The notes below the pieces were generated by a model. That model was given only the letters and a program-made list of their open reading frames with translations, had not been told where the DNA came from and ran no database searches. Of a stretch of DNA of 62,177 nt, positions 14,981 through 53,891 are shown in pieces. Both the position numbers and the translations under genes were made by a program. Position 1 is the first letter of the stretch, and every line of letters begins with the position of its first letter. Origin of the DNA: Rozella allomycis CSF55 (lineage: Eukaryota); NCBI GenBank assembly GCA_000442015.1, contig KE560931.1:1-62177 (forward strand), given 5' to 3'.

Positions 14981-16462
14981 ATGACAGTCAAATTGTCAAC
15001 AAAGCTCGGCATCTCAGACGTTGTGCTATCCGGCAAGCGCGTATTAATCCGGTAATCCACACAATTCGCATTCATAGTGTGGATTTCAATGTACCGCTCA
15101 AGGAGGGCAGAATTACAAACAACCAGAGAATAGTTGCTGCTCTGCCTACAATCCAGTATGCTCTCGATAAAGGTAATTGGATTTGTGCGTGTTAAGGCAG
15201 GTGCCAAGAGTGTTGTGTTGATGAGCCATTTGGGGAGACCCGATGGCAAGGTGGTGCCGTCGCAGAGTATGAAACCGGTGGCGGTGGAGCTCGAGTCGTT
15301 GTTGAATAGGAAAGTTACGTTTTTGGACGATTGTGTTGGGGAGTCGGTGGAAAAGGTTTGCAGAGACGCTTCCGGTGGTACGATTGTGTGTGCGTTTATT
15401 GATTACAGGGCAAGTGATACTCTTGGAAAATCTGAGATTCCATTTGGAAGAGGAAGGGTCAGTTAAGGATGAACAAGGCAACAAGGTAAATATGTAAATT
15501 ATCTCTACTTGAGCTTAAAGCCGAAAAGGCGGCGGTTGACGCTTTTAGAGCATCCTTGTCGAAATTGGGTGATGTGTACATCAACGATGCTTTCGGGACA
15601 GCACACAGAGCTCACAGCTCAATGGTCGGTGTTAATCTTCCTGTTCGGGCAGCTGGAATTCTCATGAAAAAGGAACTAGAATTCTTTGCAAGGGCTCTTG
15701 AAAATCCTGAAAGACCGTTTCTTGCGATTCTTGGAGGTGCTAAGGTGTCTGACAAGATTCAGTTGATTGAAAATCTTTTGGATAAAGTAAATTCAATGAT
15801 TATTGGTGGAGGCATGGCCTTTACTTTTAAGAAAGTTGCGCATGGAGTTAAAGTAACTTTTGAAGTGGTGTTTAAAAGATTGGAAATTCACTGTATGATG
15901 AAGAAGGNGGAAATTCACTTTATGATGAAGAAGGAAGCAAGTTGGTACAAAAGTTGTTGGATAAGGCCAAAAAGAATGGCGTGGAGTTATACTTTCCGGT
16001 TGATTACGTTACTGCAGATAAATTTGACAAGGATGCACAAGTAATTGATAATAATAGATATGATTAGACCGGATCGGCTACTGATGAATCTGGAATACCG
16101 GATGGTTGGATGGGATTAGATTGTGGACCAAAAAGCAATGAAATATTCAAACAAGCCGTTTCTAAAGCCAAAACCATTCTATGGAACGGGTAAGACAGGA
16201 ATGATATCAAAATAGGCCTGCCGGAGTATTCGAGTTTGACAAATTTTCAAGTGGCACAAAATCTATCTTGGACGCTGTTGTGTCCGCCACTAAAGCAGGT
16301 GCAGTTTCAATAGTCGGCGGAGGTGATACCGCAACGGCAGTCGCCAAATGGAAAATGGAAGATAAACTTAACCATGTGAGCACTGGTGGTGGCGCCTCGC
16401 TTGAATTACTCGAAGGAAAAGATTTGCCCGGAGTTGTCGCTCTGTCTGATCGTAGTCAATAA
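14981..16462 (+). CDS. PGK1: Phosphoglycerate kinase (spliced; assembly N at 15908)
   Basis: [64 protein letters not shown]. Confidence 0.97.
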
Positions 16463-27809: not shown

Positions 27810-28246
27810 TTAACGCCCACGGCCTCTCCCTCTGCCACGTTCTATATTCATCTAATTAACAATTTTTACGCATGCCAGATCCTGCTCTTCTACCTCGAAT
27901 AGAGTCTCCTCCGATATGATGGGCTCTCTTTTTCTTTCCTTTTTCATCCTTAACTTTTTCAATAACCTAAGTTTATAGTTGATTGTAACGCTTACTTCGT
28001 CCGGTACACGTAGATACTTTATCATATTTCCTCGAATAAAGCATTCTGGCATCCTCCAAAATCTGTCACCATCTGGTGATGTACAGATTACTTCTCTTAG
28101 GTTAAGATTCATCCAAGTGTCGCAAGTAACAAGATGGCCATTGTATGTCTCACCATTTTTCAGTTCTACAAGCTAAATATATAAAAAATAGCATGGTTTA
28201 CCATGGGAGAACCAAGAGCTGTGTTCAGTAACGAAAGTGGTAACAT
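27810..28246 (-). CDS. LSM4: U6 snRNA-associated Sm-like protein LSm4 (spliced)
   Basis: MLPLSLL...[24 protein letters not shown]...[19 protein letters not shown]-repeat tail. Confidence 0.95.
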
Positions 28247-28643
28247 TCAGTCTTCAGGAAATCAGAAATTTCAAAATGAAGAAACGCGCAACTCTTGAAT
28301 AAATCTGGGCGAGGAAAGTATTTTCATGAATCGGTATAATGAGATTTGCATGATATTCACGAAATCGAGACCACAAAGACTTCATCTCAATGCGCACTAC
28401 CAAAGAGACTAAGATTAATTGAGTCTTTGCTGATTAATTTCACACCATATACGCCATGCGCCATGTACAGCTATTAATGAAATGAGTGCTGGACTACTAC
28501 TCTTTGTAATCATCTGATCCTATAATTCAATATCACAATTTAATAAACGATTCCACAAATTGTAATTTATTCTTCCCACTTTCCTTTCTCAATCCCACCG
28601 CACCAAACTTAAAGCTTCCCAAAAAGTGCAACCCTGGTCCAAG

Positions 28644-31600
28644 ATGAACGTTGAAGAGTGGCAACGTCTTTTAGGCACAGGCAAGTGTATATAATAATAT
28701 GAATGCAGGCGACATATCAAGCTGTGTGAATTATTTAACGGATATCCGAGCGAGCGTGGATTCGCTTATCGAGTCGCCCGACTTTGTGTTGAATTTCCAG
28801 AGCGTGCTCCAATCATATTTTGCGCAGAGTGTTCCTGTATTTATTGACAATTATGAAAATGTAAAAAATTGGGTGTGCTTTAATAGAAATTGAGGCATTT
28901 GATGTTGGAGATTATGAACCATTTGCCGTGTAATGAGAGTGTGAAGCAGAATGTTGGGGCGCTGGCTGGATTGTGTATGGGGGTGATTGAGAATGATAAT
29001 GAGGAGAATGCGTTGGTTGCGTTGCGTGTGTTTGTTGATTTTCAGAGGAATTTTAGGCCGTTGATGGAGGATAGGGTGCAGCCGTTTTTGGATTTTGTGA
29101 TTGCGTTGTATGATCGGCTGCCTGAGCTGGTGAATGAGGCGTTTGAGGTATGTGGTGTAGTTGGTTGAAATGTAGCAGGCGGATGGACTGGGGATGGTTA
29201 CACCGCCACCTGTTGAAGAGGATGCGATTGTGACTGGAAAAAGTTTGATAAAGAGCAGGAATAGTTTTAAAGTGTTGACAGAGTGCCCGATTATTATTGT
29301 GATATTGTTCCAGCTGCATAGAAAGTTTGTGAATCCTAATATCCAAAAGTTTGTTGAAATGATTGTAAAGGCGTTGAGAATCCAAGTGTCGGCGCAAGTT
29401 GAAGCGCAAAACTTGGCTAATAAGAAGGGAAAGTTGTTTTCTGGGGTGAGTTTGGCTATAAAGAATCGAGGATTGTTTACTGATTTGATATCAGCACAGA
29501 TCAAGACAATGTCTTTTTTAGCGTATATTTTGCGTAGTTTTGCATCTGTGTTGAAGCCACACCAGAATGCGATACCAACTTTTATAATTCAATTGTTGCA
29601 AAATTGTCCACCTGAGGCTAGTGGGATAAGAAAGGAGTTGCTCGTTGCATTGAGACATATTTTGAGTACAGAGTTTAGACAATCGTTTATTCCACATTTG
29701 AAGATACTTTTAGATTCTAATATATTGATAGGTACTGGGAACGCATCGTATGAAACGTTGAGACCGTTGGCGTATAGTTTGTTGGCTGATTTCATTCATC
29801 ATGTGAGATTGGAGTTACCTTTACCATTTCTAGTGTTGACCATATCAGTTTATACAAAGAACTTGCATGATTCTACGATTAGTGGGAATATTCAAACCAT
29901 GTCAGCAAAGTTGTTGGTTAATCTAGTTGATTGTATTGTGAGTGATACGTTTCCAGTCGAGCAAAAGAGACCATTGCTAATAAAGATACTTTCTACGTTT
30001 GTTGATAAATTTACAAGTTTGAAGGAAGGATTGGAATTTTCCAAGAAGAATTTGAATAAGAAAGTTGAAGATGAAGGAATGATTAAGATTAGTCAAGGTG
30101 TTAGTGAGAATGTGAATGAGCCTTTTAGAGAAAACAAGTTTTTATTGAGGACGCTTGTTAGTGGGATGAAGAATATACTGTATGGACTGAAGGGCTGTAA
30201 TCCAGGATCGCCGCAGCAGTCGGGATTGCATGTGAGAGGGTTTTCAGCAGAGGAAAGTGATTTATTTATGAGATTGTTTGTTGATGGAATTGAGTGTTTT
30301 GATATGTATGCGATGACTAGACCAAATGAGAAGAGTGAAGGGAAGCCAACACCTGAAGGGTTTCCCAAGGGATTACCGCATTCAACGATTCCATCTGAAG
30401 AGAAGGAGTTGATGGATCAGTTTGCATTGTCATTTACAGTTATAGATCCAGCGTTGTTTTGTGATGTGTTGACTAGTTGTTTTGAGTACTTTATTGAAAA
30501 GGTTCAGTCGAATGTAGCATTGTTAACAATTCCGCAGTATTTTCTGACTGTTGGGCATAATCCATTTCCGAGTATTCTTTTGAGATATTTGATGAATAAT
30601 TTGGAAGAGATTGGAAAGAAGGATGAATTGAAACCGCAGATCTTGTTGAGACTATTCAAGTTGGTGTTTATGTCTGTGAATGCATTTGCAGAGGAGAATG
30701 AAGGTATATTGCGGCCGCATATATCTGATATAATAACTAATTGTTTGAAGATGTATAGGACAGCTGAAGAGCCTTTGAATTATTTTATCTTGTTGAGATC
30801 GTTGTTTAGAAGTATAGGTGGTGGCAAATATGAAGCGTTGTACAAGGAAGTGTTACCGTTGCTTCCATTGTTGTTGGAGACGTTTAATATGTTGATTGAG
30901 ACTAGTGAGAGGAAATCGTATAAAGAGTTGTTTGTAGAGTTGTGTTTGACGGTGCCTGTTAGATTGAGTGTGTTGTTGCCGTATTTGTCGTTGATGATGA
31001 GACCGCTGGTGACTGCCTTGAAGTCTAATAGTGAGTTGGTTAGTCAGGGGTTGAGAACGCTGGAGTTGTGTATTGATAATTTGACGCAAGTAAGATTGAA
31101 TTGTTTTATTGAAAAGGAATTTCTGGATCCAATATTAGCGCCCGTGTCTGAAGAGTTGATGTCAGCGTTGTGGTGTCATTTGAAGCCGTTGCCGTATAAT
31201 TCAGCGCATGCGAGTGCGACTGTTAGAATATTTGGTAAATTGGGTGGACGAAATAGAAGATTGTTTAAGAATAACACTAATTTGAGTGTGGGGAATGTTC
31301 AAGTTGGAATTGAGATGACGTTGAATGAGAGTTTGAAATTGCCTATGGATGAATTGATTAATGTGAGTTTTAATGTGTTGAAGGGAGAAGAAGAGATATT
31401 TTACAAGAGACATGCGTTTAATGTAGTAAAGGAAGGGGTTATGGGAGTGATGAATGAAGTGTGCCAAGGTGAAGATGATGACAAGATTGGGTTGGATTTG
31501 ATGGTTGAAAAGTATTTGAATAAAGATTTGAAAAGAGAGATAAAGAGTAGATTGGAGAATTTAAAGCAGGAGAGTAGGAATAAGAAGAAGAATGTTGTAG

Positions 31601-34600
31601 AGAGTAGAATAGAGCAAGTTTTGAAGGGAGAGATTGTAAAGAATGAGAATACGAGTTTGAAAAAGGAATCAAAGATGAAGAGTTTGGAGTTGATGATGAA
31701 GAGTTTATTTTATTGTTCAAAGATTGAAGAGTTAAAGGAAGAGGCTGTTGAGTGTTTGAAGAATGTGTATAAGATTTATGGGATATTGAAAGTGAGAGAG
31801 TATTTGGAGATTAGAGAATTTAATTTGAATTTGAATAGTGAAATTAAAGATATTGAAATATTGAATTGTTTAAATGAAATTTTGGTTGAAATTTTATCAA
31901 ATGAAAATTCAGAAATTGTGGAAACAGGAAAACAAGTTTTAATTTTGTTTTATGAGATTATTATTGATTTGTTTGAAAAGAATTATGAGATTATTGGAAA
32001 TTTGAGTATATTTTATCAAATAGCGAGTAGTTTTTGTACATTTTGTTATAAGAGTTTGAATGAAAAGAGAGGAGGATGTAGAGGATTGAAGTTGATTGTT
32101 TCAGAGATGTATTTTGGAAATAAATGGATTTGGATGCATGAAATGAAGTTTACGAGAGCATTGTTGTATATTTTGAAGGATGATGTACCTGATTTTAGTC
32201 GTGGGTTGATTAAAGAAGCGAAAGAGACGTTGAAGATGATATTTAAAGTTGGTAGATATCAGGGTGAAGATAAGGAGCTAAAAGAAGGTGGTTTGAATGA
32301 TAGTGTTAATGCAGAGAGAAAAACTTATTTTAATCAATTGATTTGCTTGTTGGTTGCTGAATTGTCTAATAGTAATGAACAAGTGAGAGAAACTATTAAA
32401 GAATCAGTTGAATATTTATCAGAATTGTATTCAATTTCAATAACAGAAATGTTTGTTCCAGTTAAAGATAGATTGTTGATGCCAATATTTGCTAAACCAT
32501 TGAGAGCATTACCATTTCCCATTCAAATAGGATACATAGAAGCAGTTAATTATTGTATGAAATTGAAACCAAGTTTATTGAATTGGAATGAAGAATTGTT
32601 GAGATTAATTCATGAAGCATTGGCATTAGCAGATGCAGAAGATCATGCTCTTGTATCAAAATCAAATCAACCAAAATCAGCTACTTTATTAACTAAATTA
32701 AGAGTTTCATGTTTATTATTGTTATCTTGTTCATTAGAATATGAAGAAATGCAACATCAAAAACAATTGGCTACTAGAAACAGAATTATTTCAATCTTTT
32801 TTAAATCTCTTTATGCAAGATCTGGTGAAATTGTTTTAGTAGCAAAGAATGGTCTTGGTTCTATTCTGGGTGGAAACAATCATAAAATACCAAAAGATTT
32901 ACTTCAAGTTGGGTTAAGACCTGTTTTAATGAATCTAAGTGATCACAAGAGATTAACAGTTCAAGGTTAACAAATATTATTTAATTAATTTGTAGGATTG
33001 GAAGGGTTAGCTAGATTGTTGGAATTATTGACGAGTTATTTCAAGGTAGAAATTGGAAAGAAATTGTTGGAACATTTAAACCAATGGGCAGATCCAAATG
33101 TATTAGAAGAAGCATCAAAGAAATCACTGCAAGATTCCCAAGAGATTAAAATAATCTCATCAATTCTCAATATATTCCACTTGTTGCCACCCACTGCTAA
33201 TATATTCATGGACAATCTAGTTATAATTACAGTTAAGCTAGAAACAATGTTGAAGAGAAGCAATAATAGTCCATTTAGAGATTCATTGATATGGTTTCTG
33301 CAGAGGTATGCGACTGAAGCGATTGACTATTTTCTGGAGAGGATAAAGAATAATCCTATTAGCAGATGTTTTGTGCAGCTGTTGGAGAATGAAAAGGCTG
33401 AAAAGCTGAGATTAGAGTTGAGAGAGAGTGCGCCAAAGTTTATGAGAGCTTTGAGTAATTTGTTGGAGAGGGAGGTTATCAATGGAATTCAAATCATTCA
33501 TGTAATGTTAAGGTAACGAATAATTTTAAATCTTCAATAGGTAAACAGAGTTAATAGCCTGACAATAGGTATTATGGGAATTGGCTGTCAGAGTTTCCTC
33601 AATTACTGAATTGGCTACAAGCATATTTTGATTCTATTTGTTCAAATGAAGGATTGAATGAGAATTTAATGTACTCACTGCGAGACACAACATCACCAAT
33701 GTTAATGTTGAGATCCTTGATAATCCATTCCAGAAACAATTTTAACATTAAACTGTTTTATTCAATGTTCAGAATAGTAGATTGCAATCCAACGCTATTC
33801 GACCAAACAATTTTAATCAATTTCATCTCTGAAATGATTCCATTAAATTATAAAGAAATGTTGAATGAATTTTGGACATTCTTTGTTGATCCAATAGTGT
33901 CTAATAACCAAAAGTTGTTTGTGTTGAAGTGGATGTTGATTCCTACTATAAAGAGGTACAAGATTGATGCAGAGTTTTTGGAAAAGTTTAAAGAGTGTGT
34001 GTGGAATGGCACGATGGTGTATCAGTTTGGTGAAATTGTGTTGTTGAATGTTATTGAAGCGACGTGTATTCTGCTGTATTGTGTACCTGAAGAGCTGAGT
34101 GAGTATAAGAAGGATATTGGAAAGTTTGTATTTAGTCTACTAGGTAATTTAAATATAACATTGTAATGATTAGGTAAAGAAATAGTTTAAACTTAAAAGG
34201 TGTGGATGATCCATTTACAAAGCAGGCTGCGTTTGTTGCCGCTTCATACTACATTAAAAACTTTGAAACACCAATTAAGCTAGTTCTACAAATAATAAAT
34301 TTAATGTTGAAAGCATCGCCCACAGAGACGAGGCATTTAATTAGACAGTCGCTGAATGTATTATTGTCTAGTCAGAATATCAGTGATTTGATTAAAGTGT
34401 TCCAGAGTGCGGTGATAGAAGAGGCGCATTTACCGCAGACGCTGATGATGGTGTGGCAGGTGTTGGTGTCGTTTCCAGATGCGTTTTATGAGTTTAGGAG
34501 TTATTTTATTCCGTGTATTGTGAATTCGCTGAGTAGGATTGGGTTGACTGTGTCTAATTCTGTTGATTCGAAGATGTTGACTGTTGAGTTGGTTGCTGTT

Positions 34601-37600
34601 ATTTATTCGTGGTTAGATGGAGGTGAGAGAGGTGAGAGAGGTGAAAAGGGAGTGGAGAAGAGAGATGAGAAGGGAGTGGAGAAGAGAGTGGATGCTCAAA
34701 TGAATATAGATCAAATGGATGTAGATCAAGAGTTTGAATTGAATTTGAATACTATAAATTTAATTGTTAATTATTTAGTTAAATTGAGTTTGAATGTGAA
34801 TAAAGCAGAGCTATTTGACAAATGCTGTTTGCTAGTAGGCAAGTTTATAAAAAAGTATCCCTCAGTGACCATTCAAATAAACAATTTTGAAAAGATATTT
34901 GTGAATGCAGAATTAACGATAGAAAGTACATCAACGTTGTGTGATGCATTGAAACTGATTGAGACTATATTGAAGGTTGATGAGTTTGATTCTGTTAGAT
35001 TTGTTTCTAGTCTTGATAAATGTTTTGAGAGATTGTTTTCTATTGATTATTTGAAAGTTAATGAAAGTGTTTTGCCTATTTTTGAAATGTTGATTGAAAG
35101 GAATATTATTAGTGAGAGAGTTGAAGAGAGGGAGGCATTGAATGAAGTTGAAATGAACACCAGTGCAAGTGCAGACGTTGTAACTGCATCACCCACTACT
35201 ACTACCACCAACCAGTCTAGTTTGAATGGTTTGATAAGTTTGTCTCATGATAATGTGATACAGCAGAGAAATTTGAATATAACATTGACATTTTTATCAA
35301 TATATTACAAGAATAAGCAAATGAATGAACAATTGTTGATTGCATTGTTGAGAATATTGATGATTTGTTCAAGAGACTTGCAACAGATAATAAATTGTAA
35401 TAAAACAGAATCAAATATAAATTTAATAAATATAGCATCAACACCCAATCTAACAAATGGAAATAATAATAGTAATAGTGTTAAATCTAGTATAACTTCA
35501 ATTCCAAGTGTAATGTTGACTATTAATACGTTGATTCTGTTGATTAATTTATGTTCTGATTGTATTCATTTATCATTTGAACACAAAAGGTAATCTAGTT
35601 TAAACTATTTTGAATAGAAATTATTTTGTTTCAATTTCAAGTATAGCAGAAAAGAGTAATGATAAATTATTATTAAAGAATATTTTTGAATTGATTAAGA
35701 GTTGGATTGTTAAATCAGAGAGTCCAACCATTAAAGAAAAGGCTCAATTAATGTTACGATTATTATGTCTAGAAAAAGATAAAGAATTATTTAAAGAATA
35801 TTTATTGCTAGTTTATGAAATCTACAAGAATCCAATCTATTCGAAATCAGAGTTGACTGTGAGATTGGAGCCTGCGTTTGTTTTTGGGTTGAAGAATGAT
35901 AATTATGAAATTAGAAATTTGTTTTTTGATTTGTTTGATGCTTCTATTCCTAATAGTTTGAATGTTAAATTAAAGTATATTCTGTCGTGTCAGAATTGGA
36001 GTTATTTTAAGGATTATTTTTATTTGAATCAGATATTCAATCTATTACTGCGAGTATATTCAAGTACTACTAGTTCAAATTCCACTTCTACTAGTTCAAA
36101 TCATTCAACTTCTACTAGTTCAAAACATTCAACTTCAACTTCTTCTCCTTCAATCTTTCAGTCAATTGAAAATTTATTGTTTTGTGATAAAAATTCAACT
36201 TGCTTTTATTTTACTGAATTATTTAAACTAATTTATTCAAAAATGAATGAAAATGAAAAGATTGAATTGAAATCTCTTCTTGTAACATTTCTATCTAAAG
36301 AATATCACATCAAATCACAATCATTAAGACCAAATGTTATTCAATGTTTCATGAATGCCATTTCTCAACTAGACCCTATCATTCCAATCTCTTGTCATCT
36401 TGTTAAATATTTAGCCAAAACTTTTAATTGTTGGTATTCAAGTATTATCTATCTAGAGAAATGTTTATCCAGTAGCAGTAGTTTTAATACTGATGATTCT
36501 AATACTAAAAATAATTCTTCAATGATAACTGATGTTCTATCTTCTCTTTACAACACTCTATCAGAAAACGACATGTTCTATGGCTTATGGCGAAGAAGAT
36601 CCATCTACACTGAAACAAACGTAGCGTTATCCTTTGAGCAATTCGGCATGTGGAAGCAAGCCCAAGAAATGTACGAAAGCGTCCAAAACAAAGCACGAGC
36701 GGGACATTTGCAGTTCACTGAATCCGAATACTATTTATGGGAGGAGCGTTGGATTGACTGTACCAGGAAACTGCAGCAGTGGGAGCTGTTGAACGAGCTG
36801 GGCAAGCATGAGAATAACTCTGATTTGTTGCTGGATGCGCATTGGCATAACTCTGATTGGATTCAAGACAAAGAGTTGATACTGCCGCTGGTTAAACAGT
36901 GCAAGAATAACCAGAAGAGAGTCTATGATGCGTTTCTTAATTTGTTGGCGATACAGGAGGGTAATGATAAGGGCATTGAATTTCAGCGTCAATATGAGAA
37001 TGGTAAGCAGATGGTATTTGAGTTATAATAGGTAATTAGTTCAGTTTAAAATGATTATAGGTAAGCAAATGTTAATGTTATTATTATAGGTATTCAAACT
37101 TGCTTGATTAAATGGCATTCTTTTCCAAATATTATCTCTTCTTGCCATATTCCACTACTAGTTGAATTTCAACAATGGTTAGAATTAAATGAAGCATTCG
37201 AAATTTATCAAAACTTTAATTCCAACAATAAACAACAAATGATTCAAAATGTCAAAGGTAAACTTATTAAATCGTTTTATAGTTAAAAGGTGCATTGTCT
37301 ACTTGGAGAGATAGGTTACCGAATATTTGGGACGATATTTCAATCTGGAGTGATCTAGTGGCTTGGAGACAACACGTGTATAATTCCATAAACAAGGTAT
37401 TCCAACCATTTGCATCAGAGCCCAATGCGGCACAGAATGCATCGTTTGCGTTTAGAGGATATCATGAAATTGCATGGATTATTAATAGGTTTGCGCATGT
37501 GGCGAGAAAGCATCAGTTGAATGAAGTTTGTGTTGGTTCTTTGAACAAAATTTACACGTTGCCTAATATTGAGATTCAAGTATTAGTTAATTTATATATG

Positions 37601-40305
37601 GATAGGATGCGTTTTTAAAGTTGAGGGAGCAGACAAAGTGTTTTTTGACGAGTCCTGAAGATTTGCCGACTGGATTGAGAATTATTAATGATACGAATCT
37701 AGGTAATTCTAATGTAGGAATAATCATTTAAGGGTATTTTGCTAATCCACAGAAAGCTGAGTTCTTTACATTGAAAGGGATATTCTTGTCTAAAATGAAT
37801 ATTCACGATGAAGCCAACAAAGTAATTCCAATTTTGAATATCTAATAAAGGTGTTTCAACAAGCTGTTCATATTGATATGAATTTGCCAGTTGGTTGGGC
37901 AGCATGGGGTCACTTCAACGATCAAAGGTACCATCATTAATCCTTTCCTCCAAATATAGATTCCAAGCAACAAAGGACATTGCATTCTGTGCCAACGCCG
38001 TCAACTGTTACCTCCAAGCAGCGAACATTTACCGAAACTACCGTTCCAAAAAGTATCTCGGGCGGTCACTTTGGCTGCTGTCAATAGACGATTCAACTGG
38101 CTCAACGATGAAGAGTTTCGAGCTGCACAGCAATGATATTCCTGCGTGGCAGTGGATCCATTTTATTCCGCAGTTGCTGAATTCTTTGGCCAGAAAGGAG
38201 GCAAAGCAGGTGAGGTGTTTTTTGTTGGTTGAGTAGGTGAGGACTATATTGTTGAAGATTGCGAAAACGTTTCCGCAGGCTGTTTATTTTAATTTGAGGA
38301 CTATTAATGAAGAGTTTTTGCAGTTGAAGGATGAAGAGGTTGGTGGGAGTGAAGGTGATGATGGAAAGGAGTGTGTTGGGAATACAGGGAATACTGGGAA
38401 TAATGGGAAAGATAATACAGTGAATAATGGTGCTACTAGTTCTAATACTTCTACAACTATGTCAGCTAATAATAATCTTTCAATATCTACTTCTACCACG
38501 TTGAATGCTACTCCAGCTACACCAGTTATTGAAGGATTGAATATTCAACCAACATCAATATTAATGCAGAATCCAATACCAACAACACCAATAACAAATA
38601 ACAATGAAACAAGAAAGAAACATCCATGGGAATTAACAGAAGAATTAATGGCAGTTATAAAGACTGGATATTCATTACTAGCGCTTTCAATGGAATCAAT
38701 GGTTGATCATATAATGCAAAGATTGAGGGCAACACCAGATGAAGATTTCTACAGAATAATTATTACCTTGCTATTTGAAAGTTATCAAGTAAATAATCTA
38801 ATTAAGATTGATGAATAGCAATTTAATGCAAAGATTGAAACAAATTTGATTGAAAATAGTTTAATTAAAGTTAGTGAAATGATTTCATCCAGTCAACATC
38901 CAAATCATCATTTCAAGAAAGAATTTGATCAAGATTTTATAAAGAATAGTCCAAATTTGATTCAAACTATTGATAAGTTATTAGAATGGAAGTTTAAATT
39001 GGAACCTTTAATAAAGAAACTGCCAAAAGTTTTGCATTTGGAGAACTTTAGTAGATATCTAGTAGAATTTGAACATCAGAAATACGATGATGTTGAAGTG
39101 CCTGGCCAATATTTACTTGATTTTGAATCTAATAATGAATTCATTAAAATAAAAAGATTTGAACCTCAAATTGATATAATAAAGAGACATGGAACTTGTT
39201 TAAGAAGAATTTACATTAGAGGCCACGACGGTTCTTTATCGCCTTTTGTTATTCAAAATCCAGCTGCTAGGCATTCAAGAAGAGAAGAAAGAGTTTTGCA
39301 ATTGTTTAGAATGTTTAATCAATTAATTCAAAGAAGAAAAGAAACTAGGCAACGCAATTTATCTTTTAATATGCCCTTGATCATTCCTCTATCTATCCAT
39401 GGGAGAATAGTTCAAGATGATCCATTCAATGTTTCTCTTTCTGATATCTACAATTCACACTGTGATTCTATTTCTATTAACCCTGATGATCCTCTAATCT
39501 TTTACAGAAACCAAATCAACCAATTCAATCTTTCTAAATCTTCTCCTGAATTGCTCAACGTCAAATTAGATTTATTCGACAAGATCCAAGCGTTCATCCC
39601 TGACAATATTCTTTCAAACTATTTCATTAATTCTTGTGCCACATTTGATGATTTCTGGATTCTCAGAAAACAATTCACGCTCAATTATGCAACGTTGACT
39701 TTTATCACTTACATTATGAGCATTGGCCATAGATTTCCTTTTAAGATTTTCATTTCAAGAAAAACTGGCAATGTTACATTCTCTGATCTTGTTCCTGGTA
39801 ACTATACATTTCTCCTGTAATCTTAGCGTTGAATGCTGTTGGCCAATTCACTTTAACTGAGCCTGTTCCATTCAGACTCTCTCCAAACATCCAAACATTC
39901 ATCACAACAATCGGCCTCGAAGGCGTCTTTTCATCAGCACTAGTGTCCATCGCCCGCTCCCTATCCGAGCCGCAGGTAACACAACTCTCCAATCCAACCT
40001 AGTTTGAAATGGAAGACTACTTATCGCTGTTCATGCGCGACGAGCTGTACGCATGGTACCTGTCCGCACAAAAGAACACGCACGAGGCGATTGTCATCCC
40101 TGAAAACGAGTTTAAGAGCAGAGTTGCGCAGAATGTCGAGCTGGTTCTAAAGAGGACGCAGACTTTGGCGTGTGTAAAGGAGAGGGAGACGCCTATTGCT
40201 CACCAGACTGTGCCTGTGAACCAGACTATTATTGATCTCGTGTCGTGTGCTGTTAATCCGCAGAAATTGTGTCAGATGGATATGCATTGGCATCCTTGGT
40301 TATAA
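28644..40305 (+). CDS. TRA1: TRA1/TRRAP PIKK pseudokinase (SAGA/NuA4 scaffold), multi-exon; first intron 28681-28708 is GC-AG
   Basis: [40 protein letters not shown] domain, [23 protein letters not shown] ending WHPWL. Confidence 0.96.
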
Positions 40306-53555: not shown

Positions 53556-53891
53556 ATGAAAGTTAAAATTAACAGTAAAAATAGGTTGGAGTGGTGATAG
53601 GGTAAGATGGGTTTGTGAAGTTGTACTAGTTGGAAGACTGCTGCGATTTGGAAGTGGAATGTGGAGGACGATGTTTGTGGGATTTGCAGAGCGCCGTTTG
53701 AAGGGTGCTGCCCTGAATGCAAAATTCCTGGGGATGACTGTTCGCTGAGTAAAATGGTTGTGGTTTACTTTATAGTTTGGGGAGCTTGCAAGCACTGTTT
53801 TCATTTGCATTGCCTGATGACCTGGCTGCAGTCGCAGAATGAGAAGCAGCAGTGTCCAATGTGCCGACAGGAGTGGCAATGCCTGAGTTGA
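53556..53891 (+). CDS. APC11: Anaphase-promoting complex RING-H2 subunit APC11 (probable 1-nt exon at 53601)
   Basis: MKVKI...W...[28 protein letters not shown]...CKHCFHLHC...CPMCRQEW. Confidence 0.93.

Follow-up and report, generated by a model that had tools for sequence, protein, structure and literature searches.

Recursive splicing has already been described in flies, humans and two yeasts. The accessible parts of the reports on BOT1 of C. neoformans (10.1101/224170) and SPNCRNA.445 of S. pombe (10.1101/226894) describe two introns that meet at AG|GT without any exon base, in introns of 375 nt (210 + 165) and 336 nt, with lariats and junctions demonstrated and one or two cases per genome. 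Ratchet points of Drosophila and mammals, as presented in the available portions of two papers (PMC8605326, PMC10156609), lie mostly in long introns and require a cryptic RS-exon of ~50 nt (exon definition). The stwintrons or nested introns of ascomycetes undergo two consecutive U2 reactions, with one- and two-step routes coexisting in L. starkeyi; the inner intron interrupts or adjoins the outer donor, which fixes the order, and "abutting" refers there to two donors (PMC7138796, accessible sections).

Here we describe a 56-nt element in the TRA1 gene of Rozella allomycis CSF55, located in a stretch of 62,177 nt of contig KE560931.1 (the window), in which an acceptor AG is followed directly by a donor GT and the whole has to be removed. 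It resembles BOT1 and SPNCRNA.445 in that a seemingly single intron consists of two introns meeting at a zero-nucleotide exon, but TRA1-type units are all minimal (26–32 nt), form chains of up to eight, occur in many essential genes and are known from DNA alone. Juxtaposed acceptor and donor, their strong conservation and a 5′ site that would be regenerated are features shared with ratchet points, whereas the TRA1 element measures 56 nt in all and its setting points to length-based intron definition; a classical ratchet point, which needs a long (kilobase) intron, was rejected on this length. As in stwintrons, a complex intervening sequence would be cleared by two consecutive U2 removals, but in TRA1 these are whole introns in series, only a disfavoured route through 33502–33557 being nested, and a strict stwintron was rejected as both units are already complete in the primary transcript. 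Chains of minimal introns are what differs here, and our literature search, in which subscription literature was thinly covered, returned none, including for Rozella or for tiny introns with recursive splicing.

The double intron in TRA1

The gene was identified by Pfam matches to Tra1_central, Tra1_ring, PI3_PI4_kinase and FAT, with Tra1_ring matched in order by five consecutive ORFs, and its best named homologs are fungal. Removal of all 17 intervening sequences (14 single introns and chains of 56, 56 and 87 nt) yields 3660 codons without a stop; sixteen of the positions come from the blind parser described below and 33513–33568 was placed by hand. Genetic code 6 was considered and not needed, the full protein being obtained with the standard code. 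GC skew is strong (up to 0.55) in the 5′ two-thirds of the gene (window 28000–36000).

Table 1. Features of the TRA1 locus, in window coordinates.
Feature	Position	Strand	Remarks
TRA1/TRRAP gene	28723..40305	+	start codon not fixed; 17 intervening sequences: 14 single introns of 26–32 nt and 3 chains
Upstream exon	32996..33512	+	ends AG (phase 0 + 2; split Arg codon AG|G)
Unit 1, 28-nt GTAA...TAG intron	33513..33540	+	5′ site 6.7 bits, 3′ site 4.8 bits
Internal junction TAG|GTAA	33538..33544	+	zero-length exon between 33540 and 33541
Unit 2, 28-nt GTAA...TAG intron	33541..33568	+	5′ site 7.3 bits, 3′ site 5.9 bits
Candidate branch site CTGAC in unit 2, A at −7	33559..33563	+	weak, putative; no such motif in unit 1
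Rival outer ends	33502..33557	+	cutting unit 1 would join 33502–33512 and 33541–33557 into a 28-nt GTAA...TAG intron; 56 nt in total, in frame
Downstream exon	33569..34143	+	starts GT; donor weak, 3.1 bits; next AGs at 23 and 25 nt
Second TRA1 chain, 30 + 26 nt	34144..34199	+	no gap in homolog-profile alignment
Third TRA1 chain, 29 + 29 + 29 nt	37003..37089	+	pattern match and parser

An earlier note on this DNA had proposed two abutting 28-nt introns at 33513–33568 in TRA1, and the letters bear this out, the two units adjoining with zero bases between them. Both end in CAATAG, as the note had it, and both also begin with GTAA. Its prediction that either unit, if retained, gives AGG TAA holds in the unspliced, unit-1-only and unit-2-only forms alike, and removal of both does restore the frame, which is that of a stop-to-stop ORF at 33558–34166; 33654, the position it named, is an in-frame TTG. 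The host gene was also correctly recognised: the Pfam Tra1_ring profile stops at 739 upstream of the element and picks up at 744 downstream, and the four residues missing between these positions are exactly those left after removal of 56 nt. The note had missed a second in-frame 56-nt solution, 33502–33557, and two further chains in the same gene. Its interpretation as a double intron is supported by the sequence, whereas we infer the two-step excision itself. Among the 10 frame-opening GT/GC–AG pairs in the region, 33513–33568 ranked best and 33502–33557 second, and against a Tra1 profile made from those homologs, 96 of 120, that cover the region, the spliced protein aligned without a gap at both 33513–33568 and 34144–34199.

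In length and in the strength of its splice sites, each unit is ordinary among the introns of this genome, the medians for 364 single introns being 6.3 bits (5′) and 4.9 bits (3′). When aligned, the units have 14 of 28 bases in common, and 10 of these lie at the ends. Their junction, TAG|GTAA, is the commonest one in chains (24 of 37 diverged neighbour pairs), and in 200,000 shuffles of the interior it arose in 0.07%, with AG|GT at 26–30 nt arising in 1.2%. The motif T[AG]A with its A at −7 occurs in 16% of the 364 single introns, compared with 6–9% at positions −20 to −8. The GT at 33569, looked at as a possible downstream donor of an RS-exon, has no acceptor 26–32 nt away and its bases are needed as coding sequence; a third unit starting there was rejected, as it would measure 23 or 25 nt (no longer than the length floor), with weak sites and a broken or shortened frame. 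In the third TRA1 chain, units 1 and 3 are 64% alike inside. The predicted fold of 33495–33590 has −9.4 kcal/mol, a value without a shuffle control.

Intron size and chains across the genome

The genome assembly comprises 11.86 Mb in 1059 contigs. Introns of ~30 nt are mentioned for R. allomycis in the accessible part of one source (PMC6349667), and U2 snRNA was found (139 bits) with the usual branch-pairing letters. Intron length was measured with a parser whose gene model is blind to internal sites and has a flat length prior above 40 nt, counting frame-necessary introns only, in 600 kb of tiles (four large contigs) and in the window; the tiles avoided the chains listed for these four, and the finding itself determined the choice of window. 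Among 281 such introns, 267 measured 26–32 nt, two were shorter and 12 were at least 34 nt long, five of the latter holding chains (three with hand-corrected ends). None of the remaining seven was confirmed as truly long: one call joined a histone H3 end to the next gene, one arose from an N gap, one consisted of a 7-nt exon with a normal intron on each side, another, 36 nt long, had an AG at 27, one of 209 nt had no Pfam support on either side, and two were candidate 27–28-nt introns with GT...TG ends. Without hand correction, full tiling is reached by only two of 10 long introns from the tile sample, and the 209-nt case and one of 48 nt have no clear assignment. In 168 kb picked for chains, where the comparison is partly circular, full tiling into units of 25–33 nt is seen in 30 of 37 long calls (0.36 when shuffled).

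One of the GT...TG introns, 28 nt at L039:6760–6787 (+), leaves the SNF2 profile contiguous (235>236) and reflects either a non-canonical acceptor placed by length or an assembly base error; the other candidate, 27 nt at L051:8443–8469 (−), is in frame and has flanks without Pfam support. Probable micro-exons of 6 and 7 nt lie between introns of normal size at L014:6098–6159 (−) and L081:1332–1416 (+), and in the window, at 53575–53629, a 26-nt intron, one G and a 28-nt intron follow each other (letters read by eye).

Across the whole genome, a three-unit pattern gave 119 matches at a period of 26–33, none when reversed and none at a period of 37–44; overlapping matches of one chain are counted separately in this figure, and 78 distinct matches were used for comparison of interiors. 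A loose two-unit pattern was rejected as a diagnostic, with 439 matches against 785 in the reversed control. A second unit began at offset 0 for nine of 545 anchors, offsets 1–12 combined accounting for seven. The chains have two to eight units and long in-frame ORFs on either side; a Pfam match was obtained for 34 of 46 such ORFs. Affected genes include dyneins, SMC, UBA1, HYDIN/CFAP65-like, topoisomerase II, PRP8, P-type ATPase and a phage-type RNA polymerase, and the chains cut into conserved domains, with profile positions continuing from one side to the other (for example dynein AAA_8 73>76, MT 106>108, Prp8 41>43, topoisomerase 381>380). Of the 32 curated chains, 30 come from loci selected by the TAG|GTAA pattern.

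Chains are concentrated in very long genes (L018:5785–5842 (−), and loci L002, L003, L008, L010, L013–L016, L020 and L021), PRP8 being one of these, and several genes have at least three. Some chains at L003, L017 and L018 are duplicated on either side of an N, which suggests scaffolding overlaps, and counts from the pattern scan may be slightly inflated. A metagenome scan with a similar pattern returned 70 loci and no second organism with such chains. These matches were mostly high-identity repeats, only one in 70 having open frames of more than 80 codons on both sides (L106; 85 and 87 open codons, GC 0.61, identity 0.86), and we rejected them as chains of relatives, reading them as ordinary repeats. 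RNA contigs from a run with the same species label (X1) gave seven partial matches to the chain locus L007, in pieces of 24–38 nt without joints, and had next to no words in common with 29000–38900.

Internal junctions and the route of excision

Over the 78 distinct three-unit matches, interiors mismatch at a mean of 0.31 (31% of aligned bases), which gives a rough expectation of ~23 single-base variants per junction position among the 119 matches if neutral. Scored within this one genome, the A of AG, G of AG and T of GT showed 0, 1 (in a match containing N) and 0 variants, counts lowered by the fact that duplications move variants in pairs, and +4, chosen as a tolerated control, showed two. 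As +4 is nearly invariant too, the variant test shows a conserved 6–7-mer and no contrast between the splice dinucleotides and +4. Position −3 does vary, with 19 matches carrying a non-T at both junctions (VAG/VAG) compared with 119 of TAG/TAG. Internal sites are stricter than those of ordinary introns (n = 364), of which 267 have GTAA and 203 have T at −3. Intact junctions despite diverged interiors point to selection on the internal splice sites. If retained alone, four of 98 units would be silent.

We consider it likely, from anatomy, frame and homolog profile, that the element comprises two independent minimal introns of U2 type split by a zero-length exon, and equally likely that it is excised stepwise, by two successive U2-type reactions each acting on one length-defined 28-nt intron and in either order. 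The spliceosome would pair a GTA donor with an AG ~26–32 nt away (intron definition, probably with a weak branch signal), and with pairing limited to this range the chain would be removed in two reactions. Were unit 1 cut first, exon-AG|GTAA would be re-formed for unit 2; were unit 2 cut first, unit 1 would be left with TAG|G and the nested route through 33502–33557 would be avoided. The final mRNA would be identical for both orders, and the half-spliced form would have an immediate stop either way. With somewhat less assurance, we lean towards a broader model of a near-fixed-ruler spliceosome (limit ~32 nt per reaction), for which recursive splicing would be obligatory in longer introns, and of growth by whole-intron tandem duplication at AG|G repeats, giving the chains of up to eight units in TRA1, PRP8, dyneins, SMC, topoisomerase II and UBA1.

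Excision of all 56 nt in one step is unlikely. The internal TAG|GTAA would then be a relic of duplication, or be kept for another role such as factor binding or the supply of stops for decay of mis-spliced RNA, but interiors diverge while junctions stay intact, and units hold to the 26–32-nt length of single introns. The outer sites are strong (6.7 and 5.9 bits) and two long candidates of the tile sample have no clear assignment, yet among 47 parser calls of at least 45 nt no long intron lacking internal sites was confirmed. Human introns below 1 kb favour conventional over recursive lariats (PMC10156609, available part), which would also speak for one step.

Less probable still, and in our estimate very improbable, is a nested route in which unit 1 lies inside an outer intron, 33502–33557, giving an mRNA of equal length with P-D-N replacing V-M-L. 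This outer intron, which would form once unit 1 is cut and would be a nested intron in the wide sense, has usable sites (5.7 and 5.1 bits) at its regenerated length of 28 nt, keeps the frame open and had its ends picked by the blind parser. Its protein, however, scores 353.1 against the homolog profile, 2.9 bits lower than the 356.0 of 33513–33568, and in the middle column 96 of 96 homologs carry L, M, I or F, with D absent; P is absent from the first column, but so is V. Furthermore, the sites of unit 2 are stronger, and the outer intron cannot form if unit 2 goes first. The hydrophobic middle column and the lower profile score suggest that the 33502–33557 product, disfavoured by the homologs, may be a minor one at most. 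TRA1 33513–33568 is one instance of its class, and this competing in-frame nested route is its own extra; a similar competitor is present in three of 32 other chains.

An assembly duplication or an ordinary minisatellite without splicing function is scarcely credible: some chains elsewhere do adjoin N gaps with duplicated flanks and some are near-perfect repeats, but only 14 of 28 bases are common to units 1 and 2, where a minisatellite would show high identity along the whole unit, Tandem Repeats Finder has no match at 33513–33568, the two N of the window lie at 15908 and 61782, and the metagenome loci with a similar pattern were for the most part the high-identity repeats described above, rarely flanked by open frames.

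If the units are cut separately, as the stepwise reading holds, this would be recursive splicing at the smallest possible scale, routine and genome-wide, and not a rare device of long introns. The zero-length exons would be genuine, with no space for a cryptic exon, and the chains would make it simple to test the choice of sites and order by a length-limited spliceosome. Annotation is affected as well, chains resembling single long introns.

Origin of the chains

Exon AG precedes 31 of 32 chains, compared with 83 of 364 single introns, and G follows 29 of 32, compared with 142 of 364; singles from the chain loci have these flanks in only 22 and 42 of 97 cases. The mean microhomology between ends is 4.3 nt for chains and 1.3 nt for singles. 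Neighbouring units range from near-identical to unrecognisable, with 29 of 66 pairs above the 95th percentile of between-chain identity. This pattern fits chain growth by tandem duplication of whole introns, in which slippage or unequal exchange between direct repeats at the intron ends (AG|GTA, 5 nt here) would copy one whole intron. The duplicated unit would be tolerated because the copy is itself a removable intron, and interiors would then drift while TAG|GTAA stays. If so, the chains, with two to eight units from near-identical to fully diverged, would form a natural series for the birth of spliceosomal introns by duplication. At 33513–33568 the interiors of units 1 and 2 have an identity of 0.33, no higher than that of unrelated units (mean 0.30), so duplication there rests on the common CAATAG end and on the class.

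Introns can be gained by tandem duplication of AGGT-bearing DNA. The chains share with this the AG|G flanks and duplication as a source of new splice sites, but in them it is the intron that would be copied, with a new exon of zero length. AG|G flanks are likewise a feature of protosplice sites, (A/C)AG|G, at which intron gain is described in the accessible part of one source (PMC3488318). Duplication across the 5′ splice site, or of exon sequence, found no support, the upstream exon end showing no similarity to the unit ends (p = 0.86). Mobile introns of the introner type exist as many near-identical copies at dispersed sites; the chains do not show this, identity between units of different chains being 0.30 and that of random single introns 0.28 (~0.83 of 11.86 Mb sampled). 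Decayed chains were likewise sought in ~0.83 Mb.

Simple copying leaves three features unaccounted for: internal acceptors end in TAG and terminal ones in AAG (59 of 66 internal acceptors have T at −3, and 21 of 32 last units have A there), units are longer than singles (median 29 nt compared with 27 nt), and phase 1 is in excess among chains (23 of 32). Our guess is that selection favours internal acceptors that are strong, or half-spliced RNA that carries a stop. A young chain of near-identical 28-nt units with AAG junctions lies at L055:1637–1749 (+), 5′ of a cation ATPase domain.
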